Shown here piece after piece: positions 12,503 through 43,750 of a stretch of DNA of 64,000 nucleotides; positions within the stretch are counted from its first letter, which is position 1, and each line of letters starts with the position of its first letter. The stretch lies in contig JAZSOS010000049.1 of NCBI GenBank assembly GCA_045537045.1, forward strand, positions 18,143-82,142, given 5' to 3'. The DNA is from Eubacteriales bacterium (lineage in GTDB: Bacteria; Bacillota; Clostridia; Oscillospirales; JAAYXM01). The notes under the pieces were generated by a model that saw only the letters and a program-made list of their open reading frames with translations, was not told the origin of the DNA and ran no database searches. The translations under genes were made by a program, and so were the position numbers.

Positions 12503-12625
12503 ATATAAATCTTCCTTTCCGGGAATAATCAAAACTTCCACCCAATATATCATATCACAGAATGGGCGGAAGATAAAGCAAAATTAATTTTTTCACAAGC
12601 TTTTTTATTGTGAATCAAAGAAACT

Positions 12626-13555: not shown

Positions 13556-13567
13556 AGGTGCAACCTC

Positions 13568-15044: not shown

Positions 15045-15128
15045 AATAAAACATCCTTTCAGTATTATAGAAACAGTATACCACAAATTCCCGCTCTATA
15101 CAAGAAAAAGAGCAACGATAAAAGAAAG

Positions 15129-15166
15129 AAACGTTCTTGCAGCGCAACTCCGCCGCAAGAACGTTT
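15129..15166 (-). terminator. Terminator hairpin downstream of the AEC transporter gene. Copy 1 of a conserved hairpin family.
   Basis: AAACGTTCTTGCAGCG-CAACTC-CGCCGCAAGAACGTTT. On the minus strand the single mismatch becomes G-U. See the partner at 21399..21436. Confidence 0.65.
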
Positions 15167-15170
15167 GCTG

Positions 15171-22536: not shown

Positions 22537-23381
22537 CTATAACAGTATTTTTACAATTATATTCAGTAACATACACGAGACTATGCCGAAAAGTGTCGGC
22601 AATGCCGCGGCGACAAGCGTCCAGAGAAAGCTTCCGCTCTCTTTTTTTATTGTCATCAGAGTTGTTGAACACGGCCAGTGCATGAGAGAAAAAAGCATAA
22701 CGCTTATCGCGGTTTGTATCCCCCATCCGTTGCTGCGCAGAAGTGCGGAGAGCGTGCCAAGGTCGCTTATGTCCGTAAGCGACCCGCTGGCGGTGTATGC
22801 CATTATTATGATGGGAATAACTATTTCGTTGGCGGGAAGCCCAAGGATAAAAGCCATAAGGATAACACCGTCAAGGCCCAAAAGCCGCCCGAACGGGTCG
22901 AGAAAAGAAGAACAGTGGACAAGAAGCGTTTCCCCGCCGATTGCAATATTTGCCATAAGCCAGATAAGAAGACCGGCAGGCGCGGCTGCGCTTACTGCAC
23001 GGCCGAGGACGAATAGGGTTCTGTCAAAGACTGAGCGGATGATAACCTTGCCGACCTGAGGGGCGCGGTAGGGAGAAAGCTCGAGTGTAAAAGATGACGG
23101 AACCCCGCGCAGGAGGGTTGTCGACAGAAGCTTTGACGCAAGAAAGGACATAAGTATGCCGAGAAGGATAAGGCAGGTGAGGGAAGCCGCTGCGAGTCCG
23201 GATTTTAAAAGGCCTCCGCCACGTCCGATAAAGAAAATTGTAAGAATGGAAATAAGCGCGGGAAAGCGCCCGTTGCATGGAATAAAGCTGTTGGTTAGCA
23301 TCGCGATAAGCCGTTCGCGCGGTGAGTCTATAATTCTGCAACCGACAACCCCGGCGGCATTGCACCCAAATCCCATACACG
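22537..23381 (-). pseudogene. feoB: feoB 3' fragment (membrane domain) separated from its 5' half by the inserted element
   Basis: From ...CMGFGCNAAGVVGCRIIDSPRERLIAMLTNSFIPCNGRFP... onward it is a polytopic FeoB-type membrane domain. Codons upstream of 23381 (MTNTTAVPIFAYQISLSS) are element-derived. Confidence 0.85.
23377..23381. other. attL core (ACACG)
   Basis: The same pentamer occurs at the right junction (43746..43750). feoB-like coding sequence stops exactly here. Confidence 0.7.
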
Positions 23382-23663
23382 AGGATAGAGAAATTTGGTA
23401 TGCAAAAATAGGCACAGCAGTTGTATTGGTCATGTATCTTTAATTGAGTATTTAACGATGTTGAGTGTTGAATTGATTATACATCTTCACACCGCGGCAC
23501 CAAAAAATATAAAACGAACAGTGAATTTAAGAAAACACATGCTATCAGGCAACCAAAAACGGCTTAATTACTATGTTTTTCAAAGCAGATTTTGTCTTAA
23601 GCCATTCGCGGATGAGTTCGACAAAACTAAGCTTTATCGCCAATTCCACAACTTTTTCAAATT

Positions 23664-23703
23664 AAAAAATTGCACCTTGTTTAACTTCAAAGTGCAATTT
23701 TTC
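23664..23703. terminator. Hairpin with A-run and T-run flanks downstream of the nuclease-like gene
   Basis: AAATTGCAC...GTGCAATTT stem flanked by AAAAA and TTTTT. Confidence 0.55.
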
Positions 23704-23728
23704 TTTGTTTTATGCGATTTTGCCGAAA

Positions 23729-24394
23729 TTAATAGTAAATTGCAAAGTGGAAACAATCACTTTCCTTACCAACAAATGTACAGTTACACTCTTTTCCTTT
23801 GTATCCAATAGGAGTAATTTGAAGCCGTTGATAAGCTATCTCATAGTTGTACTCTAAGTCTGCTGTTCTTGTTGGGAACTGCGGTCTTATAAGAAAAGGG
23901 AAAAAGCACAACTTACTTTCATTTACAAGCGGCTTGCCTCCCTTACCTTCCCCTAACTGAATTATCTTAGAAAAAGAGTCAACGCAATTAAACCACGCTA
24001 TTATAAACGCTGACTTTCCTTTATTATCGTTGTTGATCTCACTTAGCAACCAATTAAAATCGTACTGTATTTCCTTCCACCCTTTACTGCACGAATACGT
24101 TCCTGATTGGGTTCTCCAGCTCCGCAAATACTTTAGTTCTATCTTAAAGCGTTTATTCTCAATGAAAATGTCATGATTAGTTTTACCTGAATCATCACTA
24201 TCTTCTGTCTTAGTTGTATACCTTGCCATATTTTTAAAGGGATATCCAACTCTCATCATCATATCAGTTTCGCTAAAACTTTTGTCTGCAACTTTTTTCA
24301 TTTCATCTGCAGAACAGTTTTTATAAGCTATATTCAATTCGTCAATGATAAGACTACAATTAGGAATAAGATACTGCTCTATTGTCAATTCCAA
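23729..24394 (-). CDS. Hypothetical protein with a PD-(D/E)xK nuclease-like motif
   Basis: ...NHDIFIENKRFKIELKYL... fits D-(X)n-E-X-K. The start was placed at the TTG at 24394, 9 nt after an AGGAG SD. The track starts at the GTG at 24403, which abuts the SD. Confidence 0.45.
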   Translation of the reverse strand: MELTIEQYLIPNCSLIIDELNIAYKNCSADEMKKVADKSFSETDMMMRVGYPFKNMARYTTKTEDSDDSGKTNHDIFIENKRFKIELKYLRSWRTQSGTYSCSKGWKEIQYDFNWLLSEINNDNKGKSAFIIAWFNCVDSFSKIIQLGEGKGGKPLVNESKLCFFPFLIRPQFPTRTADLEYNYEIAYQRLQITPIGYKGKECNCTFVGKESDCFHFAIYY

Positions 24395-24468
24395 GTAGAA
24401 CACTCCTGATGGTTATATATTTACATTTATTGTGTCCTACTTTTTAAAAAAAATACAAATTATGCCAA

Positions 24469-25032
24469 TTATTTCATGCATCTTTTTGCCCGTATCAACG
24501 TACTCTTACTTATTCCGGTCATATTTTCCACTTCTTTATAGGTATGACTCTGCAACAGATCCATAGCAAGTCTAATTTGTTCACTATTAAACTTTTTAGG
24601 TCTGCCTTCTTTAAAGTTGGGGTTTTGCTTCGCTATTGCTTTACCTGACTGAGTACGCTCAATAATCATTGCTCTTTCAAATTCTGCAAACGCTAACAGG
24701 TTTGTGACTATCAGCCTTCCCATTGGAGTATCTTCTATAAGCCCCATGTTAAGGATATGAATACGCACGCCTTTATTCATGAGATTATCTATATAGGTTA
24801 ACCCCTCTTTTGTTGTTCTGCAGAAACGGTCAAGCTTTGTTACTACAAGAATATCTCCGGTACGCATCTTTTCCAATAGTGCATTAAATAAAGGGCGTTC
24901 CTTTGCTCCTGAATAGCTCTCTATGATAATTTCCGACTCTGCATATCTTCCTTTAATGTTCTGAGTTTGTTCTTCTATGCTATTGCCGTCTAATTGTCCT
25001 TTAGTGCTTACTCTGCAATATCCATATATCAC
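24469..25032 (-). CDS. Small serine recombinase (resolvase/invertase family) with a C-terminal HTH
   Basis: [11 protein letters not shown] catalytic-serine motif, [11 protein letters not shown]-helix [15 protein letters not shown] and C-terminal HTH ([12 protein letters not shown]). 187 aa. Confidence 0.9.
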
Positions 25033-25056
25033 GAAAATGACCTCTCTTCATAAGTT

Positions 25057-25143
25057 ACTTTTGACACCTAGTTTTGACACCATTCAAACACGCATGGATT
25101 CATACGGTAGATAAAAGTGTTAATTCTTTCAAGTTTTGACACT
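25057..25143. repeat. Three copies of (A)NTTTTGACAC upstream of the small recombinase gene
   Basis: ACTTTTGACACC at 25057..25068, AGTTTTGACACC at 25070..25081 and AGTTTTGACACT at 25132..25143. Confidence 0.6.
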
Positions 25144-25160
25144 TTTAGTTTTTAATTATT

Positions 25161-25186
25161 GGGCGGTTGTTACACCGCCCTTTTTT
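25161..25186 (+). terminator. Intrinsic terminator oriented for the plus strand
   Basis: GGGCGGT-TGTTAC-ACCGCCC followed by TTTTTT. The left flank is not A-rich, so it works for the plus strand only, although the neighbouring genes are on the minus strand. Confidence 0.5.
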
Positions 25187-25188
25187 CG

Positions 25189-25476
25189 TTAGTGGTTTGA
25201 ACTCTGTACCTTTCCATCAAAAGCTCCGCGCAAATCTTTTTCCAGTGCGTTGATTTTTGCTTCAGCTATATCGCTATACTCTCTGAGTATGTATGCGACG
25301 TTTAAAAGCGTATCATTTGTAAATGCGCTTCCTTCCACAGAAAGTGCTTCTACTAATATATCAGCAATTGAACGGACTTTTGCAAATACATTGCCACAAT
25401 CTTCTGCTTCTTCGGCTAATTGAAATAACGAGCAGCGCATAAGTTCAACAACTTCTTTGTTAGTCATCAAATTCAA
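25189..25476 (-). CDS. Hypothetical protein (95 aa)
   Basis: ORF in the leftward operon, overlapping the upstream ORF by 17 nt. No recognisable motif. Confidence 0.5.
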   Translation of the reverse strand: MNLMTNKEVVELMRCSLFQLAEEAEDCGNVFAKVRSIADILVEALSVEGSAFTNDTLLNVAYILREYSDIAEAKINALEKDLRGAFDGKVQSSNH

Positions 25477-26161
25477 CTCCTTCCGTATTTTCCGCTATGT
25501 CACAAAAAAGTGTTTCATGAAAAACATCTGATGGTGGGTCGGGTTGAATGTCATCCGGTATTGTTTTTTCGGTGCTTATGATTCCCTCCCATTGCTTGTA
25601 CTGCTCTGTTTGTAATATTTCCGGTGGAGTGAAAAGCATAAGATGCATAAGCTCAGCAACTTGTTCCATATTAAAAAACCTTGCGCCGTCTGTTACTCTT
25701 GCCGCTATGTAGGAGAGTGCAAATTCCTCTCGTGGAGTTATTTGTAGCTTTTCGTCGTTGACTTCTCTTAGCCAGTTTAAATAAACCTCATGGCTGTAAT
25801 TCAACATAAGCACATGTTTTACTGCTTCGGATAAAATTTGTTGTTCGGTGCACTTATTGGGTGCCGGGACAACCAACTTTTTCAAATCCCATGTCCCTGT
25901 GTCTTTTGTTTCGTCGAAGTAGAGATTGATTCCCAAACTTTTCAACATATTCAAGTCTTCTCCGAAATCTAGACATTTCAATTTCCAGATATACTTTTGG
26001 GTGAGACGTTTGTTGCGTCGCTCGGCTTTACTCTTTTTCTTTGTTGTTCCCAATCGATCAATTTCTTTATTTGTCTGAGCCAGTTCTTTAACTAATCCGT
26101 CAGCCCTTTCAAGATATATCTTTCTCAACTCCGCTTTTTGCTTATTGGTCATCTTAAACAT
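25460..26161 (-). CDS. Hypothetical protein (233 aa)
   Basis: Long ORF in the leftward operon. Lys-rich N-terminus and acidic C-terminus. No motif recognised. Confidence 0.55.
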   Translation of the reverse strand: MFKMTNKQKAELRKIYLERADGLVKELAQTNKEIDRLGTTKKKSKAERRNKRLTQKYIWKLKCLDFGEDLNMLKSLGINLYFDETKDTGTWDLKKLVVPAPNKCTEQQILSEAVKHVLMLNYSHEVYLNWLREVNDEKLQITPREEFALSYIAARVTDGARFFNMEQVAELMHLMLFTPPEILQTEQYKQWEGIISTEKTIPDDIQPDPPSDVFHETLFCDIAENTEGVEFDD

Positions 26162-26172
26162 CCTTTTCTCCT

Positions 26173-26373
26173 TTATGCATACAATTTATTATGTATTGTC
26201 GCTGTCTGAAAACGTGCCAGTTCTGCAACTGTTTTACAGTCTGGAATCTTAATATTACGGATTCCAAAATCCTTCAATATTCGCCTCGTAGCCTTAATGT
26301 CTGCCGTTGTAGGTCTTGAATTAGCCTCGTGCTGTGTCATAATATAGATATTATCAAGTGAACTCATCTGCAA
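26173..26373 (-). CDS. Hypothetical protein (66 aa)
   Basis: Compact ORF packed between neighbours in the operon. Confidence 0.4.
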   Translation of the reverse strand: MQMSSLDNIYIMTQHEANSRPTTADIKATRRILKDFGIRNIKIPDCKTVAELARFQTATIHNKLYA

Positions 26374-26546
26374 GCCCTCCTTTCCAGTAATTTAAGGCTT
26401 TTGATTCCGTAAGAGATAAGTAACCACGCAACAGCGAATTGCCTGATTATTTCTCTCATAGTGATGCTTCCGCAGTCTGATGCTCCGGCTGTTCCGAATA
26501 AAAGCAGAACCCCTGCACCGATAAACAAATAATATAGAAACCTCAT
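26364..26546 (-). CDS. Small membrane protein (two predicted TM helices)
   Basis: MRFLYYLFIGAGVLLLFGTAG...FAVAWLLISYGI hydrophobic segments. Confidence 0.4.
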   Translation of the reverse strand: MRFLYYLFIGAGVLLLFGTAGASDCGSITMREIIRQFAVAWLLISYGIKSLKLLERRACR

Positions 26547-26608
26547 TATTAAACATCCTTTCTTTTGTATAGTGCGGTTTTTCCGCAGAACCGCAAAACT
26601 GCTTATAT

Positions 26609-26881
26609 TTAATACTCCGGTGGAAATAAAACAGTTGTTGCCGATCTATCGGCTTCTGTTATAATCCATATTTTTCCGCGGACTGTCGGATATGCTCCGA
26701 CTATTCGCAAACCGTTTTCAAGTGCAAAGGCATTTTCCTGTGCATCTTCTTTTACGACATCGCCCCAATCACCGGTAATAAAACGCCTTATGGCATCGAC
26801 TACGTCATATGAAAAACGCTCATCTTGTTCCATTGCCTTTGATACCCCGCAGGTAGCTGTTAATTTTCCAAGTTCAAACAT
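26609..26881 (-). CDS. Conserved MGE-associated small protein (GDWG ... IWIITEADRSxTTxLFPxEY type)
   Basis: From memory this family occurs on plasmids and ICEs of gut Firmicutes and Bacteroidetes. The start was moved to the ATG at 26881 (GGAG SD 9 nt upstream), which removes the overlap with the sigma-like gene. Confidence 0.5.
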   Translation of the reverse strand: MFELGKLTATCGVSKAMEQDERFSYDVVDAIRRFITGDWGDVVKEDAQENAFALENGLRIVGAYPTVRGKIWIITEADRSATTVLFPPEY

Positions 26882-26898
26882 ATTTAAATCTCCAATCT

Positions 26899-27483
26899 TT
26901 ATATTGCGGGTGCGACTGTTGCACCCCACTTATCAAAATATTTTTGCTTAATTTTCTTTTTTACATCATAGAATGCCTGACGCGAAAGATTGAACTCGCG
27001 CTCTATCTGTGTCGGTGTATATCCCTTTAAAAGTAGAGAAACGATTTCTGTTTGCTTTTTTGAAAGCTTGAGAGATAGAATCCGTTTAACCCTCTGCTTG
27101 TTTTCCTCTTCACGTTCCAGTTGGTCTTGTGCTTCTTCCAAATCTTCAAAAGGATTAACACCAATGTAATTATAAAGGCTTCTTTTTTCGTCTTGTTCTG
27201 CAGAATAGTCTGCATCAAGGCTGACGGTTTTCCGGGTTGCTTTTAGTTTTGCATAATTGCCAAGCTCTGAACGTATATCCCATTTGCAAATCGTTACTAC
27301 ACTATATTCTTGCAACTCCGGTTTTCTGTGCCATTTTTGAATGCCTTTTAAATAACCTATGGCTGCAATGTCGTAGAAATCCGAAACTGAATATCCATGC
27401 AAGCGCAAGAATGTATAAATATAATTATGATACTTTTCTGCATCAAGTCTTTCTGCATCTGTTAACGGCTGAAGTTTAAACAT
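26899..27483 (-). CDS. Sigma-70-family-like protein (region 2-like N-terminus, region 4 HTH C-terminus)
   Basis: C-terminal LSKKQTEIVSLLLKGYTPTQIEREFNLSRQAFYDVKKKI resembles a region 4/LuxR-type HTH. The N-terminus has the aromatic-rich pattern of region 2. Confidence 0.6.
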   Translation of the reverse strand: MFKLQPLTDAERLDAEKYHNYIYTFLRLHGYSVSDFYDIAAIGYLKGIQKWHRKPELQEYSVVTICKWDIRSELGNYAKLKATRKTVSLDADYSAEQDEKRSLYNYIGVNPFEDLEEAQDQLEREEENKQRVKRILSLKLSKKQTEIVSLLLKGYTPTQIEREFNLSRQAFYDVKKKIKQKYFDKWGATVAPAI

Positions 27484-27545
27484 GTTAGAATACTCCTTTA
27501 TCTTTATTTTTGATATGTGGGCGGGTGGTGTTCCCGCCCTTTCAA

Positions 27546-28052
27546 TTAGATAACTTCAAGCTTTAATTGTGGCTGACTTGTAACCATCTGTGAGCCGAAT
27601 AAATCTCTTATCTCGTCAAGCGTGAAAGTCTTATTATTACGCTTGCGGTAATTTGTGTCATGCAGATACCAAGCCGTCTTTGACTTGCTAAAGCGGAATT
27701 TTAAGTGCTTCAGTGTTTCACGGTGTGGGTATGTATTTCCCGACACCCACAGCCAACTACCACATATTTCCACTTGCACACCCTCAAGAGAAATTAAGCG
27801 GTTTATTATCTCTCTGAACTCTTCCGGCGTTTCGTCTGTCGCTGTCTTTGCTGTGTATGTCTTGCCGTCTGATGTGCTGTGAATGTTTTTGAGCCGTTCA
27901 AAGAGTATACCATATTCGGCATTTATTTGCTTCATATGCTCTGCATTGCCGCCTCTGTCAGGGTGATGCTCAAAAGCGAGCTTCTTATATTGCTTTTTAA
28001 GCTCTTCAACTGTCTGCGGATTATCAAACCATAACATTTCAAACCGTAACAT
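27546..28052 (-). CDS. J-domain (DnaJ-like) protein
   Basis: ELKKQYKKLAFEHHPDRGGNAEHMKQINAEYGILFERL contains the HPD motif. The C-terminal domain has a ...CGSWLWVSGNTY... segment. Confidence 0.8.
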   Translation of the reverse strand: MLRFEMLWFDNPQTVEELKKQYKKLAFEHHPDRGGNAEHMKQINAEYGILFERLKNIHSTSDGKTYTAKTATDETPEEFREIINRLISLEGVQVEICGSWLWVSGNTYPHRETLKHLKFRFSKSKTAWYLHDTNYRKRNNKTFTLDEIRDLFGSQMVTSQPQLKLEVI

Positions 28053-28178
28053 TTTTAATTACTCCTTTTTATTTGACGTTTGGAGCGGTCAGTGATATAA
28101 TAATGTATATGTAACCGCTCCTTTACTCGGTTCGTGTTACTTGCCTTTACAAACTGGTACTTTGTAAGGGCATTTTTA

Positions 28179-28454
28179 TCACGCTATTGAAAATCTTTTC
28201 GATGTAGTTGTCTTTGTGAACTGTTCATATAAATCTGCGTATTTATTCTTAAATGCCGTGCTATCGAAACGAGTAGAAGTCACCTGCTTATATCGGACTT
28301 TATACTCATTTGTTGAAATCTCATCAACCTGCCGAAGCTCCATTTCTTTCTTGAGTTCGTCCTTAATGGCTTCTTGCTCGGCTTCAATCTCTTCTGCCCA
28401 TCTGGTAAGCTCTTTTAGCTTTCTTACCTTCTCATTAATACTTATTGTTGTCAT
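28179..28454 (-). CDS. Small coiled-coil protein common in Firmicutes mobile elements (ends ...TTSKRFSIA)
   Basis: The start was moved to the ATG at 28454 (MTTISINEK...), which has an AAAGGAG SD. The N-terminal 58 codons of the track ORF look non-coding (promoter region). Confidence 0.55.
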   Translation of the reverse strand: MTTISINEKVRKLKELTRWAEEIEAEQEAIKDELKKEMELRQVDEISTNEYKVRYKQVTSTRFDSTAFKNKYADLYEQFTKTTTSKRFSIA

Positions 28455-28621
28455 TTGTAACGACTCCTTTAATATTATTTGCTCTGGGGTGTTGCCCTTT
28501 GAGCTTGATATAAGTATACACCCATTTTGAGTGTATTTCAATTGACGGATTACACAAAGTACACACTTATTTCTTGTGTATATTGTACACTTGATATAAG
28601 TGTATGCAAAAATGGTGCTTA

Positions 28622-28650
28622 TTGACATAAAAAGAATTGTTTGATATAAT
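28622..28650 (+). promoter_or_regulatory. Consensus sigma-70 promoter (TTGACA-17-TATAAT)
   Basis: TTGACA at 28622..28627, a 17-nt spacer and TATAAT at 28645..28650, just upstream of the HTH gene. Confidence 0.7.
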
Positions 28651-28671
28651 CACTTAAAAGAGGTGTATAAC

Positions 28672-28896
28672 TTGATAAAATATAAAGTTGATGTTTTGGA
28701 GAAATTAAAAGAAAAAAATTTTTCAGCATATGTATTGCGAAAAGAAAAATTAATAGGGGAAGCAATGATACAAAAAATAAGAGCTAAAGATTTACCGTCA
28801 TGGAAAACGCTTGATACTATATGCAGATTGCTAGCTTGCGACGTCGGAGACATTCTTGAATACATCCCAGACGACAAAGAAAAAACGCAATCCTAA
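28672..28896 (+). CDS. XRE/Cro-type HTH transcriptional regulator
   Basis: MIKYKVDVLEKLKEKNFSAYVLRKEKLIGEAMIQKIRAKD...TLDTICRLLACDVGDILEY is a typical small phage/ICE HTH family. The TTG at 28672 follows an AAGAGG SD. The track uses the GTG at 28663. Confidence 0.7.
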   Translation: MIKYKVDVLEKLKEKNFSAYVLRKEKLIGEAMIQKIRAKDLPSWKTLDTICRLLACDVGDILEYIPDDKEKTQS

Positions 28897-29113
28897 AACC
28901 TAACAGAGCGGGCGTTCTAATACCCGTATCAGGCGCAGAATTGCGTTTTTAGAGTATAATATATTTAATATGTAAGTTTATGTGTTAGTGTGTACTATGC
29001 CGAGAAAAAGACAGTACAGGGCTGTGTTTACATTTATAACACCGTTGTTCTCTCCGGAATACGCGGTAGCACTTCTATCCACACGTCGAGTCAAAAATTA
29101 GAACATCGAAGAA

Positions 29114-29146
29114 CAAAAAAACACCCTCACCGATTAAGGTGAGGGT
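29114..29146 (-). terminator. Intrinsic terminator of the leftward TA operon
   Basis: ACCCTCACC-GATTAA-GGTGAGGGT with an A8 run on its left, which is a U-run on the minus strand. Confidence 0.75.
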
Positions 29147-29171
29147 AAATTAGTTGTAAGCTATAAGAATA

Positions 29172-29528
29172 TCATTCGGCAATCAACTTATCTACCAAAG
29201 AAGGATCTTGCTCAATTAGATAGATTAATTTGCGTGCCGTAGGGGTTGGATTAGATTTACCGCATTCCCAAGCTTCAACTGTGCGACAAGAAACACCAAG
29301 AACAGAAGCAAATGATTTTTGAGTCATAGAGAGTGAGATTCTAATTTTGGATACATTCACATCAGGAAGTGATTGTTTTCTTGCGAAAGTTTCTGCGCTT
29401 GCTTTGCCTTTTTCATATGCCAAAGCTTCATTAAGACCATCCATTATACCGGAAAAGAAATCAATGTTTTTGAAATTATCTTCTATTTCTTCCATTGATA
29501 AAGAAGACTTAAAGCGTAATTCTTGCAT
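29172..29528 (-). CDS. HTH (XRE-type) antitoxin, HigA/MqsA-like
   Basis: C-terminal HTH (LSMTQKSFASVLGVSCRTVEAWECGKSNPT). The ATG at 29528 has an AAGGAG SD and lies 4 nt after the toxin stop. Confidence 0.7.
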   Translation of the reverse strand: MQELRFKSSLSMEEIEDNFKNIDFFSGIMDGLNEALAYEKGKASAETFARKQSLPDVNVSKIRISLSMTQKSFASVLGVSCRTVEAWECGKSNPTPTARKLIYLIEQDPSLVDKLIAE

Positions 29529-29532
29529 ACTA

Positions 29533-29862
29533 TCACTCCTTTTTAATCTCATCTACTAAGGTCTTAATCGCTTTTTTCTGTTCTGAGGTCAAATCTTCTT
29601 GCACATTCTTAGGATATGCAAAAAGCAAATATAATTTCTCTTTTTCAAAAACATCAAGATAAATAACTCTGCCACCGCCACTTTTGCCTTTAGCATCAAG
29701 CTGTATGCGTAATTTTCGCGCACCGCCACTACCTTGTATGACATCTCCTCTTTGTGGATTTTCGAGCAGTATGTTTTCAAGTGTTTTTAAATCATCGTCT
29801 GTTAATCCCATTGCTTTCCAACATCTATGAAAAGGCGCAGTAAAAATAAATTCTCTTGTCAT
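29533..29862 (-). CDS. RelE/ParE-superfamily (HigB/Gp49-like) toxin
   Basis: 109-aa basic protein. The ...GGARKLRIQLDAKGKSGGGRVIYLDVFEKEKLYLLFAYPKN... pattern is typical of this toxin family, and the toxin-first gene order is HigBA-like. Confidence 0.7.
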   Translation of the reverse strand: MTREFIFTAPFHRCWKAMGLTDDDLKTLENILLENPQRGDVIQGSGGARKLRIQLDAKGKSGGGRVIYLDVFEKEKLYLLFAYPKNVQEDLTSEQKKAIKTLVDEIKKE

Positions 29863-29890
29863 TTCATCACTTCTTCACTTTATGATTGTA

Positions 29891-29937
29891 CGGTATTATC
29901 GTAGTTATATTATATACGATATTATCGTAGTTGTCAA
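29891..29937 (-). promoter_or_regulatory. TA-operon promoter (TTGACA-17-TATAAT on the minus strand) overlapped by two 16-bp direct repeats
   Basis: On the minus strand the -35 box is at 29932..29937 and the -10 box at 29909..29914. The repeats are CGGTATTATCGTAGTT (29891..29906) and CGATATTATCGTAGTT (29917..29932). Confidence 0.65.
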
Positions 29938-29997
29938 GCGTTTTTGATTTTTTAATTAATTTAATTTAATATTTTTCATTCTTCTACATATAATTAA

Positions 29998-30037
29998 AGT
30001 GTACACTATTGACATAATGTACACTTTTTGTTATAAT
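29998..30037 (+). promoter_or_regulatory. Consensus promoter (TTGACA-17-TATAAT) flanked and overlapped by two AGTGTACACT-type palindromes
   Basis: AGTGTACACT at 29998..30007, TTGACA at 30009..30014, AATGTACACT at 30016..30025 and TATAAT at 30032..30037. Confidence 0.7.
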
Positions 30038-30052
30038 GGAGGTGCAAAGGAG

Positions 30053-30487
30053 ATGAATGATATGTTAACTATGAACGCTACAGATGTACGCAAGAATTGG
30101 AGCGAAGTATCGGATAGCGTAATCAGAGAACGTCCGAGCTTTATTAAACGCACTCGTGACTATATGATGCTTTCCAGTCTTGAATTGATGAATGACTTGT
30201 TAGCTGCATATACTTTTACCGCTGAGAGATTTACAGAATCAGACGGTAGTATTACTTTGTCCTTAAATGAGATTGACTTAGTTGAGAACGCAGAGACCGA
30301 AGCTAAAGCAAAAGAGCAGCTTGCGAATGCCATTCTTGAATATGCTTATGATTACTATAGTGAGTATAAGGTTTGGTCAACTGCACCGAATAGAAAGGCT
30401 CATATTCCATATGTATTTAAGGCGATTATACTCGACGATGTTAAGCAGATTGGAGAGTGTATTCAATGCCGAGATGGAAAGAACTAA
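30053..30487 (+). CDS. Putative antitoxin (Phd/YefM-like N-terminus) of the second TA pair
   Basis: The N-terminus ...MNATDVRKNWSEVSDSVIRERPSFIKR... resembles Phd/YefM-type antitoxins. It overlaps the downstream toxin-like gene by 22 nt. The start is ambiguous (30053 or 30062). Confidence 0.5.
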   Translation: MNDMLTMNATDVRKNWSEVSDSVIRERPSFIKRTRDYMMLSSLELMNDLLAAYTFTAERFTESDGSITLSLNEIDLVENAETEAKAKEQLANAILEYAYDYYSEYKVWSTAPNRKAHIPYVFKAIILDDVKQIGECIQCRDGKN

Positions 30488-30684
30488 AGAGATTTTGCGA
30501 GCGGGACGGCTGGGAACTGTATAAAGACACAGACCACTACTTTTATCGCAAGCGGGATGAAGATGGAAACATCCGCATGACAAAGGTATCAAAAGGCAGT
30601 GGAGAGATACATACTCATATGTGGAGAGAAATACTAAAGAAGCAGTTACAAGTAAGCGAAGAGTATTTCAACCGGATGATATAA
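30466..30684 (+). CDS. HicA/YcfA-like toxin
   Basis: MPRWKELKRFCERDGWELYKDTDHYFYRK...VSKGSGEIHTHMWREILKKQL matches the small YcfA/HicA pattern. GGAGAG SD 8 nt upstream. Confidence 0.5.
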   Translation: MPRWKELKRFCERDGWELYKDTDHYFYRKRDEDGNIRMTKVSKGSGEIHTHMWREILKKQLQVSEEYFNRMI

Positions 30685-30742
30685 TAAAATGACGATAACC
30701 GTTATCTGTAATGGGTAACGGTTATTTTTGTTGAAAAAGTTA

Positions 30743-30771
30743 TTGACACAAATTCAATCATATGATACACT
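30743..30771 (+). promoter_or_regulatory. Promoter candidate (TTGACA-17-TACACT with a TG extension)
   Basis: TTGACA at 30743..30748, a TGA extension and TACACT at 30766..30771. Confidence 0.5.
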
Positions 30772-30805
30772 GTTCATAAATTTAAAAATGAACGAGGTGG
30801 GATTT

Positions 30806-31354
30806 GTGACATTTCATGATTATATTAAAAATCATACAAAATACGGGCGCGGGAATATAGATTTAAAAAAATGCTGTGCTTACAAGATCGACAAAATTTT
30901 AAGAGAAGAAAATTTCCCTAATCGATGCATCAGATTTAAACTTTACGGAAAAACTTTTGGTTTCCGAGCAGATTATAATCTCGATTTAGACCACGATATT
31001 CAAGCAAGCGCTGACAATTACATAGATATCTTTGATGAACTAAAACCTATGGAGGCAAGGAATCTTCTATGTTTTATGTACTTTGAATTCCGGGACAAGT
31101 ATATTGAAATGTCCGAAGAGATAGAGAGACTTAAACAAAGTATAAGCGATCTCGAAGATGTTCAAAAACAGTTAAATGACATAAAAGAGAAGCGTTCACA
31201 TGCGGGAAGACCTCCTATATCAGTTAAAAAAAGACAAAGGGTTTTAGAGTTGAGAGAGCAGAAAATGTCTTTTTCTCAAATCAGTAAAGAATTGAAAATA
31301 AGTAGAGGTTCTGTTCATAAAATAATAAATGAACAAAATGGCGGAAAAGCTTGA
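30806..31354 (+). CDS. Hypothetical protein with a C-terminal resolvase-type HTH
   Basis: GRPPISVKKRQRVLELREQKMSFSQISKELKISRGSVHKII resembles the HTH_7/Hin DNA-binding domain with no catalytic domain. The GTG at 30806 follows a GAGGTGG SD, and the promoter lies inside the track ORF. Confidence 0.55.
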   Translation: MTFHDYIKNHTKYGRGNIDLKKCCAYKIDKILREENFPNRCIRFKLYGKTFGFRADYNLDLDHDIQASADNYIDIFDELKPMEARNLLCFMYFEFRDKYIEMSEEIERLKQSISDLEDVQKQLNDIKEKRSHAGRPPISVKKRQRVLELREQKMSFSQISKELKISRGSVHKIINEQNGGKA

Positions 31355-31498
31355 TTTTGCATATTACAAAAAGCGTTTTTATGTTATCTTGGGGATATAA
31401 CACCAATAACAGCAAATAAATATAGATTTTACACAATAATGCAGTTATTTATCAAGATGTACTCGAATTTTTATTTTCTGTATTTTAGGCTAAATATA

Positions 31499-31524
31499 CG
31501 ATATATATTAGTACCTATATATCG
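31499..31524. promoter_or_regulatory. 9-bp inverted repeat (CGATATATA-N8-TATATATCG) just upstream of the RHH gene
   Basis: Perfect arms at 31499..31507 and 31516..31524, 17 nt before the ATG at 31541. Confidence 0.45.
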
Positions 31525-31540
31525 CGCGAAAGGAAAAACT

Positions 31541-32005
31541 ATGTCAATATCTGAAGCACAAAAACGAGCAAGTAAAAAGTATTTAAAAACACATAATAAA
31601 CAGATAAAGCTATCTATGCCAATACATGAAGCAAAAGCTCTTGAACGCTATTGCAAGAAGCATAATGTAACAAAGATGGGATTGATACGCAGTCTTATAC
31701 GAGCTGAAATAGAAAGAGACTTCGGGAGAGAACATCGGGATTTCGAGCTTTGGATTTCGGAAAAATGGCACGAGGCAAAAGCAGAGGGGGTTGTTACACA
31801 GGAGCAAGAAAATGAGTTGAGCAATAACAACCGTAGGAGAGAAGACATCGAAAATGCCATTCCTTATTTGCATACACTAATGAGAGCGGGATATATTTCA
31901 CTTGATGAAGACGGATATTTCAAGACTACGAGTATTCGCGATACTCCGGAAAGATTTGAAGAAAAACATAAGGCATCGTCAGGAATGTTTTTTGTTTTGA
32001 GATGA
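31541..32005 (+). CDS. Ribbon-helix-helix (CopG/MetJ-like) domain protein
   Basis: MSISEAQKRASKKYLKTHNKQIKLSMPIHEAKALERYCKKHNVTKMGLIRSLI fits a beta-strand plus two-helix RHH layout. The ATG at 31541 has an AAAGGAAAA SD. The track ORF starts at 31439. Confidence 0.55.
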   Translation: MSISEAQKRASKKYLKTHNKQIKLSMPIHEAKALERYCKKHNVTKMGLIRSLIRAEIERDFGREHRDFELWISEKWHEAKAEGVVTQEQENELSNNNRRREDIENAIPYLHTLMRAGYISLDEDGYFKTTSIRDTPERFEEKHKASSGMFFVLR

Positions 32006-32211
32006 TGTATCAAACAGATCAAAGTCATGATTAATTTCATGGCTTTGTTTTTTTGTCCATTTTTCAAAACCACGATGAAATCATAATTTCAACAACAAAA
32101 CTCCACGCAAATCAAAACTGATGAAAATTCGCTCAAAAATTTTTTCAAACAGAGAATATAAGAGTAGGCAATAAATTTTTGCTGAAATTTATAAGATGTG
32201 GAGTTTGATTA

Positions 32212-32832
32212 ATGAAGACAAAAGAAATAAAGACAAATGCAATTATCATCAACGAGGCAATCAATAAAGTAAAAAAAGAATTTAAGAGCGGGATTAATGT
32301 TTCTGAATTGGATATGTCCGAAATTGAGACAGTATTGGAACGTGTCAATGCGATACATAAACCGAAAGAAAGAGAGCGGGCGCTTAGAACCTTTGACAGA
32401 GCATTAGACAGATTTGCAGAGTACATAGCGAAACATTCAACAGATGAAGGTTTCTATACAGAGAAAACAGATAAAAACGATGTAGAATCTGAAGCTCAGT
32501 TAAAAGCGGGGCTGTACGACAAGAGGCGACCTGTTAACCAAACAGTATTTTCGGCTTTCTTATGCAATGGTGAAGACGGAAGCGAGTTTTACACATTTGA
32601 ACTTGGAGAAGATGCAGGGCATCGCATTGAAAATTACACTGAGTTGCAAATCATGCTTGATGAAGCTTTTTCTCTTCTAAAAGAGGATGTAAAGCTTGTT
32701 GGTAGGTTGTACGAGAATGGATACACAATAGAAGAAAGTGCGAGGATTTCAGGTCTAACTCCTAAGCAAGTAAGAGGACGAAGAGATAAGTATTTAAATA
32801 TGAGGAAAGATATTTTACAAAAAGTTTTATAA
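32212..32832 (+). CDS. Second sigma-like / region-4 HTH regulator
   Basis: C-terminal VKLVGRLYENGYTIEESARISGLTPKQVRGRRDKYLNMRKDI resembles sigma-70 region 4. Confidence 0.5.
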   Translation: MKTKEIKTNAIIINEAINKVKKEFKSGINVSELDMSEIETVLERVNAIHKPKERERALRTFDRALDRFAEYIAKHSTDEGFYTEKTDKNDVESEAQLKAGLYDKRRPVNQTVFSAFLCNGEDGSEFYTFELGEDAGHRIENYTELQIMLDEAFSLLKEDVKLVGRLYENGYTIEESARISGLTPKQVRGRRDKYLNMRKDILQKVL

Positions 32833-32859
32833 AAAAGGGCAAATCGTGTGGAGAAGTGC

Positions 32860-33072
32860 AACTATATAGTGTGAGAGTTAAGGTGAACGTGCTTCGCGAA
32901 CACGATTGGAGATAAAGACGCACCTTCTTGTTAAGACCTTGCGTGGGTATTCTTTCCCGGAATGCCCTGTTACGTAGCGCAAACTCAACGGGATGAGATG
33001 CCGAGTTCCAACTCTTTAACTTTCCGTTTAGATATAGAGGAGGGGAGTAATATAGCTCCACACTATATAGTT
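32860..33072. repeat. Perfect 14-bp inverted repeat (AACTATATAGTGTG / CACACTATATAGTT) bracketing 185 bp of non-coding DNA
   Basis: Arms at 32860..32873 and 33059..33072. Each contains the 10-bp palindrome ACTATATAGT. More ATATAG motifs occur at about 33032..33037 and 33050..33055. Confidence 0.8.
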
Positions 33073-33182
33073 AGTACGAATTCGATTAACGATGATATGT
33101 CTTCCCGGCTTCTCTCCTCTTGCTATTTTTTTAATCATTTAGGATAAACAGTATTTACCAATTAACTGAAAGGAGGTTTACC

Positions 33183-33359
33183 ATGTTAAAAGATCGAGTA
33201 AAGCACTACATAGAGATAACAGGCATTCCTAAATCAGTGTTTTGCAAAAGGTTAGGTTTTACTGTTCAGTCACTCTATTTATGGCTGAAAGATGAGCGAC
33301 GGTTTTCTCTTGAGACCGAAGAACGCATAAAGAAATATCTCGCGCAGTTTAACTTCTAA
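33183..33359 (+). CDS. Small HTH protein (58 aa, below the ORF-track cutoff)
   Basis: The ATG at 33183 is preceded by a GAAAGGAGG SD. It translates to MLKDRVKHYIEITGIPKSVFCKRLGFTVQSLYLWLKDERRFSLETEERIKKYLAQFNF. Confidence 0.65.
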   Translation: MLKDRVKHYIEITGIPKSVFCKRLGFTVQSLYLWLKDERRFSLETEERIKKYLAQFNF

Positions 33360-33426
33360 AAAGGGAGAACAATATATAAGGAGGTGATCGCAATGGAGAG
33401 AACCTAAAACTAACCATACAACACAA

Positions 33427-34689
33427 ATGAAACAAAGGAGAGGATTTTATATAACAAACACAAACGAAAAGATTATAACGGTTATTGATAGTCTAATGGG
33501 TTCAGGGAAGACTCAGTGGAGCATCCAGTACATCAACGCAAATCAATACGATAATATCTTATACATAACACCGTTCCTAAAAGAAGTGGAACGCATAATC
33601 ACATCGACCAATAGAAACTTCAAACAGCCAATTAACAAAGGCGAAGGTAAGCTTCAAAGCATTAATGACCTATTAGAGGGACAAGAAGACATAGCCTGTA
33701 CACACGAGCTTTTCAAGCACCTGAACGAAGAAAGCAAACAACGCATTAAAGAAGGTCATTATACATTGATACTTGATGAAGTGCTTAATGTCATTGAGCC
33801 GTATGACGATGTTAAACAGAACGATATGGATTTATTAAAAAACAGTGGATGCGTTACTGTTGATGATGAGGGGTACATTGTTTGGAACGAGGATAAGAAA
33901 GATTATGATACAAAATATAATGAAATAAGAGACTTAGCGCAGAATAGAAGCTTGATTTACATTAATCAAAAGTTGCTCTTATGGAAATATCCACCTGACA
34001 TATTCACCTTGTTTGATAAGATATATGTTCTTACATATTTATTTGAAGCAAGTATACTGAAACATTATTTTGATTTATATGGATTCCAGTATGAGAAAAA
34101 GAGTGTAATTAAACAGGATACTTGTTACGCAATAGTTGACTATTTTGTGCCTGATACAACACAGTTCAAGGAGAGAGTAAATATTTACGAAGGCATTCTC
34201 AATGATAACTTCAATCAGAAATTAACATCACTATCAAAAACATGGTTCAATGCCAAGACCAATACAAAAACTCAAATGAAAATCAAAAATAATATATATA
34301 ACTATTTTCAAAATATAGTAAAAGCTCCTGCAAGCTCTATACTATGGACTACATTTAAAGCAGCTAAGTCGAAATTAAAAGGAAAAGGATATTCGAGCAA
34401 GTTCTTAGCCTGTAATTGTAGAGCAACTAACGAATACGACGAAGCATATAATCTCGCTTATTGCGTTAATATATATCTTCATCCGGCAGTGACTCAATTC
34501 TTTTATCAAAAAAACATCAATGTTGATGAAGACTTATTTGCTCTCTCAGAGATGCTTCAGTTTGTTTGGCGATCCGCAATTCGCAAAGGCGAAGAGATAA
34601 ACATATACATACCATCAATAAGAATGAGAAATTTACTGATAAACTGGTTAAATATGTCGTTGAATAACCAAGCGTTAAAGGTAGCTTAG
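33427..34689 (+). CDS. P-loop NTPase, SF2 helicase-like
   Basis: Walker A (SLMGSGKTQ), Walker B/DExx (TLILDEV) and a motif VI-like segment (QFVWRSAIRKG). 420 aa. There is no SD of its own. See the upstream mini-ORF. Confidence 0.6.
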   Translation: MKQRRGFYITNTNEKIITVIDSLMGSGKTQWSIQYINANQYDNILYITPFLKEVERIITSTNRNFKQPINKGEGKLQSINDLLEGQEDIACTHELFKHLNEESKQRIKEGHYTLILDEVLNVIEPYDDVKQNDMDLLKNSGCVTVDDEGYIVWNEDKKDYDTKYNEIRDLAQNRSLIYINQKLLLWKYPPDIFTLFDKIYVLTYLFEASILKHYFDLYGFQYEKKSVIKQDTCYAIVDYFVPDTTQFKERVNIYEGILNDNFNQKLTSLSKTWFNAKTNTKTQMKIKNNIYNYFQNIVKAPASSILWTTFKAAKSKLKGKGYSSKFLACNCRATNEYDEAYNLAYCVNIYLHPAVTQFFYQKNINVDEDLFALSEMLQFVWRSAIRKGEEINIYIPSIRMRNLLINWLNMSLNNQALKVA

Positions 34690-34990
34690 GAAATCGACCT
34701 TCCTAAACTTTTCAAAAAACATAGTAATCATGCGGGTTTCGAGAAATTTTCTTTAAAGAGAGGAGGTATTAAAAATATGATGAAAAATTAGATATAAATA
34801 TTCACATTAGCCTTACGGCATTACACCAATCGGTTGTTTCACAACCTCATGGTGCTGTCAGCTTTTACTGGCGTAAAATCCGACAGGATTAAATCTTTAA
34901 TCTCATTTATGGGCTTTGAGTTGTATGGGTCAACAGCTCAAGTACCGGGACTGAGTAAAAATAAATTAACAAAGGAGTAGGGAAAGACAA

Positions 34991-35674
34991 TTGAGAACGA
35001 AAGGAAGTAAAAACAAGGGATTAACAGCAGAAGAATACAAAGAACTTTTTGAGAAGTACAAGGGCGATGTGTTGTTTGAAAATGAAGAAGCGAGACAAAT
35101 GGTAAAGCATAAGCCGTACTTATTTATTACAGATAAGGGCAGAGTTCTCTCGGTAAAAAAAGACCGAATAAGAGTACGAAAACAAACACAGAGAGTGCAA
35201 AAGTATAGTAATGATACAAAAGGAAGCAACGAGAGAAAGCATTGTGTTTGTATCTTAATAGATGGCAAACCAAAAGTCTATTATACACACCTACTGGTCG
35301 CAGAATATTTTTCCGATAAGATTTCTTCATTTGTTACTGGAGATGAAGATAAAACTATCATTCATCACATTAAGGGATATGATCCAACATCAGATAGTAA
35401 TAATAATGTGAATAACCTCATCCGAATGAATCCACGTACACACCTGTTGATGCACAGTATGGGGGTTAAGTCAACAGAGGAAGAAAGGCAGAAATGGAGA
35501 GAAAGAATATATAGAGTGATAGGAGATAAGCACTGTATGTTTTATAAATCTCCTGATGGGCAGTATTCAGGGGTTCTACCTTTGACAGACAAAGAGTTTG
35601 AATTATTATCAAACTCCGAAGAATATAAGAACAAATTTTTAGAAAATCACTTAGAAAAGAAAGGAATTATTTAA
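34991..35674 (+). CDS. HNH homing-type endonuclease (NUMOD4-like N-terminus)
   Basis: YLFITDKGRVLS (NUMOD4-like) and IIHHIKG...NNVNNLIRMNPRTHLLMH (H-N-H). TTG start with an AAAGGAG SD. Confidence 0.7.
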   Translation: MRTKGSKNKGLTAEEYKELFEKYKGDVLFENEEARQMVKHKPYLFITDKGRVLSVKKDRIRVRKQTQRVQKYSNDTKGSNERKHCVCILIDGKPKVYYTHLLVAEYFSDKISSFVTGDEDKTIIHHIKGYDPTSDSNNNVNNLIRMNPRTHLLMHSMGVKSTEEERQKWRERIYRVIGDKHCMFYKSPDGQYSGVLPLTDKEFELLSNSEEYKNKFLENHLEKKGII

Positions 35675-35676
35675 TT

Positions 35677-35907
35677 ATGATTATGAATAACGAAAGCAAA
35701 AACAAGAATCCATTTATCCAACTCGGCTGGATTGTAATGCCTGAAGATATAGATAATCCGGATGGAAATATTGATTATTATGGGCTGTATATGAGAACTG
35801 ATAAGTGGGTGCGCTATCCATCAAATAATGTGCAGCAAAGCGAAAGCACTGAGACAAAGCGAATGTCTTTCGGAGAGAAACTAAAATGGGTATTCAGCAA
35901 CAAATAG
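35677..35907 (+). CDS. Hypothetical protein (76 aa)
   Basis: ORF tightly packed after the HNH gene. No motif recognised. Confidence 0.4.
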   Translation: MIMNNESKNKNPFIQLGWIVMPEDIDNPDGNIDYYGLYMRTDKWVRYPSNNVQQSESTETKRMSFGEKLKWVFSNK

Positions 35908-36335
35908 ATAAAATCATTCGGAAGCACGACTTAAGATTAAAAGTCATAGCCGATAAGGTTATGACAGAGACAAAAGACGAGTTGATTAGAAGACTTGACG
36001 AAGATTTCTATAAAAGCTACTCGCCTTTGGATTACGAGCGCTCGTATGATCTGATATCTGCTGTTGACGGTCGTATAACCAAGAACGGCGTAGCAGACTA
36101 TACCATCGAAGTCTACTTCGACGAGACAAAAATTCGTCCGAGAAGTCGAGCGGGCTTTAGTGCTCATATGGGATTTGATGGCAAACCGTTTGTGCATGGG
36201 ATTGTTGAGGCGATAGAACACGGCTTTAAAAGCAAATATAACCCGCGGCACGGCGAAGAGTTTAAGATAATATCAAAAACGCAAAAAGATGCAGAAAAAA
36301 TAGCTAATAAGCTATTAAAAAGTTATATAAAATGA
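35886..36335 (+). CDS. Hypothetical protein (149 aa), possibly a virion-module remnant
   Basis: ORF upstream of the tape-measure gene. No confident family assignment. Confidence 0.45.
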   Translation: MGIQQQIDKIIRKHDLRLKVIADKVMTETKDELIRRLDEDFYKSYSPLDYERSYDLISAVDGRITKNGVADYTIEVYFDETKIRPRSRAGFSAHMGFDGKPFVHGIVEAIEHGFKSKYNPRHGEEFKIISKTQKDAEKIANKLLKSYIK

Positions 36336-36354
36336 TTTTTAGGAGGAAAACAAT

Positions 36355-36807
36355 ATGGATAAGATTAATTACAAAGGAACAAGCCTTACAGAGCTTATAA
36401 AGCTCTCACTCATTGGTGCTGAGAATTGCACAGAGAAAAACGAAGACGGCATTACGGTTATAAATTCACTGAAGAAGCAGCTTTACATAAAGACAGTTGC
36501 AGTAGGTCGACTTCTTAAGGCTGTTGACATTAAGGAAGATGAGATGATGTCTATTTCTGATTTTGATAATTGCAATATTTCAGAAAGCAATGTAGGCACC
36601 GGGAAGAATCGCTTCATTGAGGATGTAAAGGCATTCAAGGCTATGCTTGATGATGAGATTCGCAACGTTATTACCCGTGAGAATGATATTATGACTCGCA
36701 TTAATGAGGCTATCAAAACAGAAATTACACCTGAAAATATTGCGAAACTCAACGAGAGCAAAGACGAGCTGATAGAAAAGCTTGATGAAATGAAGACCGA
36801 AGCATAA
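36355..36807 (+). CDS. Hypothetical acidic protein (150 aa), in the position of a tail-assembly chaperone
   Basis: AGGAGG SD. It lies immediately upstream of the tape-measure gene. The assignment is by position only. Confidence 0.45.
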   Translation: MDKINYKGTSLTELIKLSLIGAENCTEKNEDGITVINSLKKQLYIKTVAVGRLLKAVDIKEDEMMSISDFDNCNISESNVGTGKNRFIEDVKAFKAMLDDEIRNVITRENDIMTRINEAIKTEITPENIAKLNESKDELIEKLDEMKTEA

Positions 36808-36821
36808 GAAAGGAGTGAGCC

Positions 36822-41738: not shown

Positions 41739-41804
41739 AACACGAGCGGGCGGTTTAATCGTGCCGTCCGCTCACCCAAAAAACGAAAAAGGAGAAATGA
41801 ATTA

Positions 41805-42089
41805 TTGACGAATAATATAATAAATTATAATCCGCGAAAGATTTTAGTGTTTCCGTCGGTTGGAATTTCATATAATAACGACGGTGATGCTTGTATGAAC
41901 GAGACTAATCAAAACTCACAGTACATAAGAGAAAATTCCGTTATTAACATCGAAAGATTTTTCACAACTAATAACGTAAATATAAATGACATATTAAAAA
42001 TGTATGTGGTAGAAAATTTGGACAAAAGATGTTACAATAATAATACCAATACAACTGTTGTGTCCCACACAAAGGAGGTAAATGAATGA
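41805..42089 (+). CDS. Hypothetical Asn-rich protein (94 aa) overlapping the recombinase start
   Basis: TTG start 10 nt after a GGAG SD. ATGA overlap with the recombinase gene. Confidence 0.4.
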   Translation: MTNNIINYNPRKILVFPSVGISYNNDGDACMNETNQNSQYIRENSVINIERFFTTNNVNINDILKMYVVENLDKRCYNNNTNTTVVSHTKEVNE

Positions 42090-43735: not shown

Positions 43736-43745
43736 ATTTCCATCT

Positions 43746-43750
43746 ACACG
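43746..43750. other. attR core (ACACG)
   Basis: Identical to 23377..23381. feoB-like coding sequence resumes exactly here. Confidence 0.7.

Follow-up and report, generated by a model that had tools for sequence, protein, structure and literature searches.

Junctions of a 20.4-kb element within feoB as the probable attP half-sites of its own DUF4368 serine recombinase

Where exactly does a mobile element that has split a gene begin and end, and by what reaction did it enter? The question is raised by contig JAZSOS010000049.1 (Eubacteriales bacterium, GenBank assembly GCA_045537045.1), of which we analyzed positions 18,143 to 82,142 of the forward strand, a stretch of 64,000 nt hereafter called the window. 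There, the ferrous-iron transporter gene feoB lies in two parts with a 20.4-kb phage-derived element between them. The original prediction had noted a pentamer at both ends of this element, taken it as the crossover region, and read the imperfect dyad of the element-internal arms beside it as a serine-recombinase attP. We find it very probable that a pseudo-palindromic attP, with window positions 23382-23405 as half-site P' and 43725-43748 as half-site P, served to integrate the element into feoB through its own large serine recombinase (gene at 42086-43735), with crossover at a CG dinucleotide. In architecture the site is an ordinary pseudo-palindromic serine-integrase attP, and its class is known; on sequence comparison, the recombinase belongs to an undescribed clade of DUF4368 large serine recombinases (~46-99% identity) that occupies one position in a highly conserved feoB motif of diverse Clostridia. 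The literature that we searched contained no paper linking serine recombinases or integrases to feoB.

The interrupted feoB gene and the reconstructed attP

The borders of the element can be read directly. GC content is ~0.47 in the flanks and 0.35-0.42 between ~23.4 and 43.7 kb, with a step at both ends. When 22537-23381 is joined to 43751-44807 (minus strand), one open frame results that encodes a 633-aa FeoB and runs through the conserved motif GLTTCMGFGCNAAGV; in-silico excision thus yields an intact feoB, as is characteristic of gene-interrupting excisable elements, whose insertion lies inside an open reading frame (ORF). Intact 633-aa FeoB orthologs of 88-91% identity (P0121, P0122, and P0124) occur in hosts that, judging by the names on the matches, are Oscillospiraceae-like Clostridia. 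Empty-site DNA (L121-L123) is colinear with the joined flanks at ~85% nucleotide identity over 2.3 kb, and the gene order FeoA-FeoB-DAPDH is the same there as in the window. Further evidence comes from relatives of the element, whose loci we took from genomes, metagenomes, and assemblies: locus L040, in a different host, matches the window at 99.5% nucleotide identity for 600 nt of recombinase gene and arm up to the core, and at 82.6% in the feoB flank beyond it. This drop places the element border at the core, and implies that the element moved recently between hosts. With the ends of the 20.4-kb element fixed to the base pair, a minimal ~50-bp attP/attB pair can be predicted, which is a candidate orthogonal integrase system. 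As inserted, the element inactivates feoB; its excision would restore the gene. A tRNA-type att site is ruled out, as no tRNA or Rfam feature was found anywhere in the window.

The pentamer ACACG does stand at 23377-23381 and 43746-43750, as first described, and the block common to both junctions is 6 nt (TACACG, 23376-81 / 43745-50) rather than 5 nt. Inside the element, AGGATAGAGAAATTTGG (23382-23398) directly follows the left core copy and CCTAAATTTCCATCT (43731-43745) directly precedes the right one; the heptamers AAATTTC (43734-43740) and GAAATTT (23390-23396) within them are, as had been claimed, exact reverse complements flanking the core. Circularization of the element would join 43725-43750 to 23382-23405 through the predicted attP junction CCATCTACACGAGGATAGAG and give a pseudo-palindrome of ~50 bp with the layout ...CACCCT-AAATTTC-CATCTACA-CG-AGGATAGA-GAAATTT-GGTATGC.... 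In this reconstructed attP the heptamers are 18 nt apart, each exactly 8 nt from the dinucleotide CG, and the geometric center falls between C43749 and G43750. In A118/LI numbering, the AAATTTC motif takes positions 9-15 from the center, and an outer CAT/GCAT motif at ~17-22 from the center fits a ~50-bp site. The predicted attB junction is CCCATACACGTTGTCAGCC, and the minimal attB is 23356-23381 joined to 43751-43774; within feoB, on the sense strand, attB reads ...CTGACAA-CG-TGTATGGGATTTGGG....

Symmetry about CG is 13/24, the maximum over 17 tested centers (null P = 0.004, i.e. at least 13/24 about a fixed center in 0.4% of trials, with mean 6.3 and standard deviation 2.2). An exact inverted repeat of at least 7 nt, placed as here (within 20 nt of each side, asymmetry at most 4 nt), arises in 0.9% of random chimeric joins of element sequence. 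Single-locus probabilities of only 0.4-0.9% leave some room for the reading that AAATTTC and GAAATTT match by chance in AT-rich DNA, or that the left copy owes its conservation only to the recombinase 3' end, the stop codon, or a terminator: AAATTT, its own reverse complement, is common, the window has no excess of AAATTTC (26 sites observed vs 30 expected), the stop codon TAA of the recombinase gene (43733-35) overlaps with the left heptamer, and most of the arms that we compared adjoin a recombinase gene. The dyad at this single locus is by itself only suggestive, so that the original step from dyad to crossover lacked strong evidence; its interpretation nonetheless holds with the comparative data, which put the dyad beyond chance.

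Conservation of the arms and position of the crossover

Eleven arms were aligned as arm, then center, then host: window P and P', and those of L040, L038, L039, L009, L010, L011, L041, L013, and L210. All 11 consist of AAATTTC, 8 nt, and a dinucleotide followed by feoB, across different hosts and recombinases 51-99% identical, and the 8-nt register holds whichever feoB half, FeoB_N or FeoB_C, adjoins the arm. L038 and L040 have the P arm itself in identical form, L039 in near-identical form (recombinase identity to the window is 99% for L040, 93% for L038, 74% for L039, and 73% for L209). Constraint on the recombinase 3' end does not account for the conserved arms, because in L039 the arm and the recombinase gene are 3.3 kb apart, in L013 and L210 the stop codon stands at another offset from the heptamer, and the window's distal arm, which adjoins no recombinase gene, has the inverted motif at the same 8-nt distance. 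The register to feoB is moreover invariant across hosts with differing flanks, and the dyad forms only on circularization, so that it makes no terminator when integrated. Coincidence, or retention of the left copy for its coding or termination role, is therefore very hard to credit. The original reading of a serine-recombinase attP dyad is instead borne out by the restored feoB frame, the recombinase architecture, and the arm conserved in register. Terminator and operator readings of the dyad are ruled out, with the arms 20 kb apart in the integrated state.

Every relative of at least ~46% identity with a readable insertion site interrupts feoB at residue ~353; L046 and L209 have no junction within the sequence covered, and no feoB fragment lies within reach of the L209 recombinase (73%). 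Relatives of 44% identity or less (L048, L012, and L049) are inserted elsewhere. A subgroup at 46-50% identity (L042, L043, L044, L045, L047, and L059) has other arm motifs, xCAAC and GCATTC, in arms whose junctions with the host agree in position and register with those above. One of the subgroup, L059, is a 3,042-bp element with both junctions; its arm motifs are GCAAC and TATAC, and centered on the same dinucleotide of feoB its dyad scores 12/24, vs at most 8 at every other center.

These relatives also help to place the crossover. On the feoB sense strand the identity block is CGTGTA in the window and CATG (4 bp) in L059, and the two overlap only at bases 2-3 of the codon A[C/T]G; short identity blocks of this kind (6-bp TACACG; L059 CATG), free of long direct repeats, are what serine integrase sites show. 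A homologous P arm that also contains remnants of the recombinase 3' end abuts FeoB_N in the window and L038 and FeoB_C in L039; the two arrangements share a register only if the cut falls 8 nt from the heptamer. Because arm symmetry, the intersection of the window and L059 blocks, and the use of a homologous arm in both orientations converge on it independently, the crossover is most likely CG (23380-81 / 43749-50), the last two bases of the pentamer. The pentamer therefore marks the element ends where it was said to, whereas the crossover most likely narrows from the whole pentamer to these 2 bp at its right edge. The ~50-bp pseudo-palindromic form expected of an attP is seen in the 13/24 symmetry about CG and in the 11 arms in register.

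By analogy with solved serine integrases (A118/LI), a recombinase dimer would bind the two quasi-symmetric arms, and both strands would be cut at the central CG (23380-81 / 43749-50) with a 2-nt stagger. Subunit rotation and religation with an equally cut attB in feoB would then give the observed junctions, and the reverse reaction, for which an accessory factor may be needed, would return intact feoB. With the crossover at codon bases 2-3, excision would leave the dinucleotide of the element in feoB.

The host codon at this position is ACG (Thr) in the window and L040, ATG (Met) in most hosts, ACA in L121/L122, and ACC in L123. We infer CG as the core of the window and L040 because their hosts have ACG where most have ATG; this dinucleotide, in both cases, is palindromic rather than of the expected non-palindromic kind, with an AC center as the alternative. 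Serine integrases normally draw polarity from a non-palindromic dinucleotide (PMC3836970), a point for which PMC3556126 also refers to Ghosh et al. 2003.

Several observations speak against our interpretation. A palindromic CG should abolish the usual control of polarity and would be an unusual natural choice (PMC3836970; PMC3556126), and the neighboring center AC (43748-49) scores 12/24 vs 13/24 at CG. L038 (93%) would need CA, its central dinucleotide changing together with the host codon, and at this codon ACA or ACC, not ACG, stands in the nearest empty sites that we found, so that they are no exact targets. Because the distal arm P' was available for the window and L059 only, a conserved second AAATTTC arm has a single element behind it. 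Finally, searches of IMG/VR with an exact 20-mer and a degenerate dyad pattern brought up neither an excised circle nor an attP junction with a link to a related recombinase: the 20-mer across the predicted attP junction had no match there, and the 81 matches to the dyad pattern, none of them beside a related recombinase, are chance matches. A pattern joining the arm to FeoB_C likewise had no match in IMG/VR. No unintegrated relative was found in IMG/VR, GenBank phages, or plasmids, where the best relatives of the recombinase reach 24-29%, 37%, and 41% identity, respectively.

The first three of these points invite the reading that the junctions are att sites in which the crossover is the non-palindromic AC (43748-49 / 23379-80), with the heptamers 7 and 9 nt from the cut. 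Besides its nearly equal symmetry, AC lies inside the shared block TACACG, and a non-palindromic core fits known polarity control (PMC3836970). On the feoB sense strand it reads GT, the last base of A[C/T]G plus the first base of TGT; GT is equal in ATG and ACG hosts, and the window and L038, with their identical P arm, would need no different dinucleotides. In L059, however, the base after ATG is A at one junction and T at the other, so that GT is not shared, and the L059 dyad is centered unambiguously on codon bases 2-3. Furthermore, the cut in a homologous P arm would lie 7 nt from the heptamer for the window but 9 nt for L039 and L210, which is incompatible with a fixed protein-DNA register. 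We thus consider crossover at AC rather unlikely, and retain CG.

What could a palindromic CG mean? Read from the P arm, the dinucleotide of other members is CA where the arm abuts FeoB_N and TG where it abuts FeoB_C. Insertion into feoB occurs in both orientations within the clade, with at least three orientation changes on a neighbor-joining recombinase tree. CA and TG are reverse complements, and CG is one substitution from both, which suggests that orientation flips may pass through palindromic intermediates like that of the window. More tentatively, and with the chances somewhat against it, the natural crossover may be a palindromic CG that gives integration and excision without built-in polarity; the window element could then be a living intermediate of such a flip, and might show how a clade of DUF4368 recombinases, which are TnpX/TndX-like and usually promiscuous, became strictly specific for one feoB codon. 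A palindromic core together with repeated flips would in any case offer a natural test case for how the polarity of serine integrases is set and changed.

The element, its recombinase, and related insertions

Coordinates of the features are collected in Table 1. The recombinase matches Pfam families PF00239 (7.9e-24), PF07508 (3.6e-22), PF13408 (1.8e-12), and PF14287 (DUF4368, 1.4e-15), and the order PF07508 then PF13408 gives it the Recombinase plus zinc-ribbon arrangement of large serine recombinases; its PHROG match is an integrase (3e-102). Homologs are abundant in protein searches. Across 17 of them R17, S19, D87, R90, and R93 of the catalytic domain are invariant, as are cysteines C330, C333, C353, and C364 in the homolog alignment. 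The best PDB match is the N-terminal (catalytic) domain of TnpX (6.5e-26), followed by SPbeta SprA.

Table 1. Window coordinates of the element, the feoB parts, the att half-sites, and the recombinase region
Feature	Coordinates	Strand	Basis
Integrated element, 20,369 bp including one copy of the crossover dinucleotide	23382..43750	.	GC, frame, empty sites, identity drop
feoB 5' part, FeoB residues 1 to ~352, G-protein domain and first gate; attB half-site, FeoB_N side	43751..44807	-	Frame restoration
feoB 3' part, residues ~354-633; attB half-site, FeoB_C side	22537..23379	-	Frame restoration, empty sites
Shared block TACACG, left copy, attL in window orientation	23376..23381	+	Sequence
Shared block TACACG, right copy, attR	43745..43750	+	Sequence
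attP half-site P (probable), adjoins recombinase gene; AAATTTC 43734-43740, outer CAC/CAT motif	43725..43748	+	Dyad, arm comparison
attP half-site P' (probable), distal to recombinase gene; GAAATTT 23390-23396, outer GGTATGC (reverse complement GCATACC)	23382..23405	+	Dyad, arm comparison
Predicted crossover CG, left copy; bases 2-3 of feoB codon ACG (Thr353), minus strand	23380..23381	.	Dyad center, block intersection, register
Predicted crossover CG, right copy	43749..43750	.	Dyad center, block intersection, register
Large serine recombinase, 549 aa; Resolvase, Recombinase, Zn_ribbon_recom, DUF4368; last gene of element	42086..43735	+	Pfam, PHROG, alignment, PDB
Small ORF, 94 aa, end overlaps recombinase start; kept upstream of related recombinases	41805..42089	+	tblastn

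The small ORF that overlaps the recombinase start is a candidate only for an accessory or directionality factor. By tblastn it is found in L038 (86%) and L009-L011 (45-53%), and ORFs of 58 and 72 aa hold its position in L039, L209, and L210; a Pfam search with it gave no match. A second, small serine recombinase lies near the left end (24469-25032, minus strand, 187 aa; Resolvase plus helix-turn-helix (HTH), PHROG label ‘DNA invertase’) and reads outward. As it is without Recombinase and zinc-ribbon domains, it is ruled out as the integrase.

The rest of the element is phage-derived but incomplete. Its cargo comprises a 1638-aa tape-measure protein (gene at 36822-41738), HNH-like, sigma-like, and DnaJ-domain proteins, toxin-antitoxin modules, and the small resolvase/invertase; Pfam and PHROG scans of the element recognized no capsid, portal, or terminase genes. 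In L038 (1886-3304), a 206-aa gene (window 32212-32832) is joined directly to tape-measure residues 1162-1636, a deletion of ~7.5 kb. A prophage in decay or a satellite-like element is possible, and one could go further and regard the junctions as relics of a decayed, immobile prophage remnant whose sites are no longer recombined, as the tape-measure gene without recognizable structural partners, the large internal deletion in L038, and the lack of a free attP in IMG/VR might suggest. Yet the recombinase ORF is intact with its catalytic residues invariant, both arms and both core copies are intact, and the nearly identical recombinase and arm of L040 in a host with a diverged feoB flank imply recent horizontal movement. 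We find loss of mobility unlikely, so that the sites may well be active at present; the relic reading in any case concerns present activity, not the identity of the sites.

Near the left end, L205 (3960-4145) has a 98%-identical copy of the left-end 224-aa gene, and its homology with the window stops at ~23437, before the arm. Segment 23382-23437 therefore appears to travel with the att/int module and not with the 224-aa gene, which indicates a mosaic joint at ~23437 between the att arm module and the neighboring cargo. No further attL was obtained through the left-end genes, homologs of the 224-aa protein sitting in other contexts. Elsewhere in the element, a 31-nt near-consensus promoter-like unit (TTGACA, 17 nt, TATAAT or TACACT) occurs in three copies (28620-28650, 30007-30037, and 30741-30771), all within its divergent regulatory region and beside toxin-antitoxin and HTH genes.

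Related insertions show other arrangements. In L039 (2653-5920), 3.3 kb of cargo (RelB, a 104-aa ORF, and a CBM48/alpha-amylase enzyme) lies between the recombinase stop codon and the P arm; a GGATGYTAA repeat and a remnant of the recombinase 3' end border this cargo, and L209 likewise has unrelated genes after its recombinase gene. L059 (8603-11647) is a minimal relative between feoB halves, with the recombinase, one 281-aa ORF, and a complete pair of attL and attR; both a stripped-down mobile element and an intervening element are conceivable. Several contigs from gut metagenomes (L059, L042, and L045) show a second interruption of feoB, ~40 codons further downstream at residue ~393. In L059 this second insert (11774-15820) encodes another, unrelated serine recombinase of 23% identity (321-aa ORF), besides an ORF of 959 aa, and FeoB homology in L042 and L045 stops at residue ~393. 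These cases make feoB look like a hot spot for elements with serine recombinases.

Comparison with known systems

The skin element (SpoIVCA, in sigK) and SPbeta (SprA, in spsM) are gene-interrupting elements that are excised by serine recombinases. As there, a large serine recombinase element here splits an ORF that precise excision would rebuild. In contrast to them, the target feoB is no sporulation gene, and developmentally regulated excision is not in evidence for this element.

In its sites the element resembles A118/LI, whose attP is pseudo-palindromic, its half-sites of 25 bp being contacted by the recombinase and zinc-ribbon domains (PMC3783163, PMC3556126). Shared features are the pseudo-palindromic attP, half-sites of ~25 bp, a 2-bp crossover inside a short identity block, the domain order Resolvase, Recombinase, zinc ribbon, and integration inside a protein-coding gene that is restored by excision (PMC3783163, PMC3556126). 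The proteins are nonetheless only distantly related, and the PDB sequence matches included no chain of A118 or LI; the target is feoB here and comK in A118, and the A118 core is the non-palindromic GG, unlike the palindromic CG predicted here. Inspection by eye did not reveal, in attB relative to attP, a zinc-ribbon motif displaced inward by 5 bp as described for LI; there is only a weak AAAT, shifted by 3 bp, in the FeoB_C half.

That half of attB (23356-23379, reverse complement GGCATTGCACCCAAATCCCATACA) does resemble the attP arms: its inner CCATACA matches CCATCTACA and CCATCCA, its AAAT lies 3 bp nearer the center than in attP, and its GCATTG resembles the outer GCATTC of the distant subgroup. 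The resemblance may reflect shared recognition, or chance plus coding constraint.

By protein sequence, the closest characterized recombinases are TnpX (Tn4451/3) and TndX (Tn5397), likewise from clostridial hosts; TndX is 35% identical over 99% of the length, and both share the DUF4368 C-terminal domain. TnpX and TndX move transposons into many sites, with crossover at a GA dinucleotide. Unlike their sites, TACACG (reverse complement CGTGTA) contains no GA on either strand, and a single feoB position is used by all readable relatives of at least 46% identity rather than many targets. GA is mentioned for TndX-type elements in PMC4430133 and PMC3672683, and DUF4368 recombinases were typically multi-targeting in a large survey (bioRxiv 10.1101/2021.11.05.467528).

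Bxb1 and phiBT1, finally, bear on the core. There, the central dinucleotide is the sole determinant of polarity, and artificial palindromic cores give antiparallel products, with polarity lost in vitro (PMC3836970). The feoB clade is alike in its quasi-symmetric arms and in an insertion orientation that follows the central dinucleotide, CA vs TG; it differs in that the natural cores of Bxb1 and phiBT1 are the non-palindromic GT, whereas the window and L040 appear to carry a natural palindromic CG.

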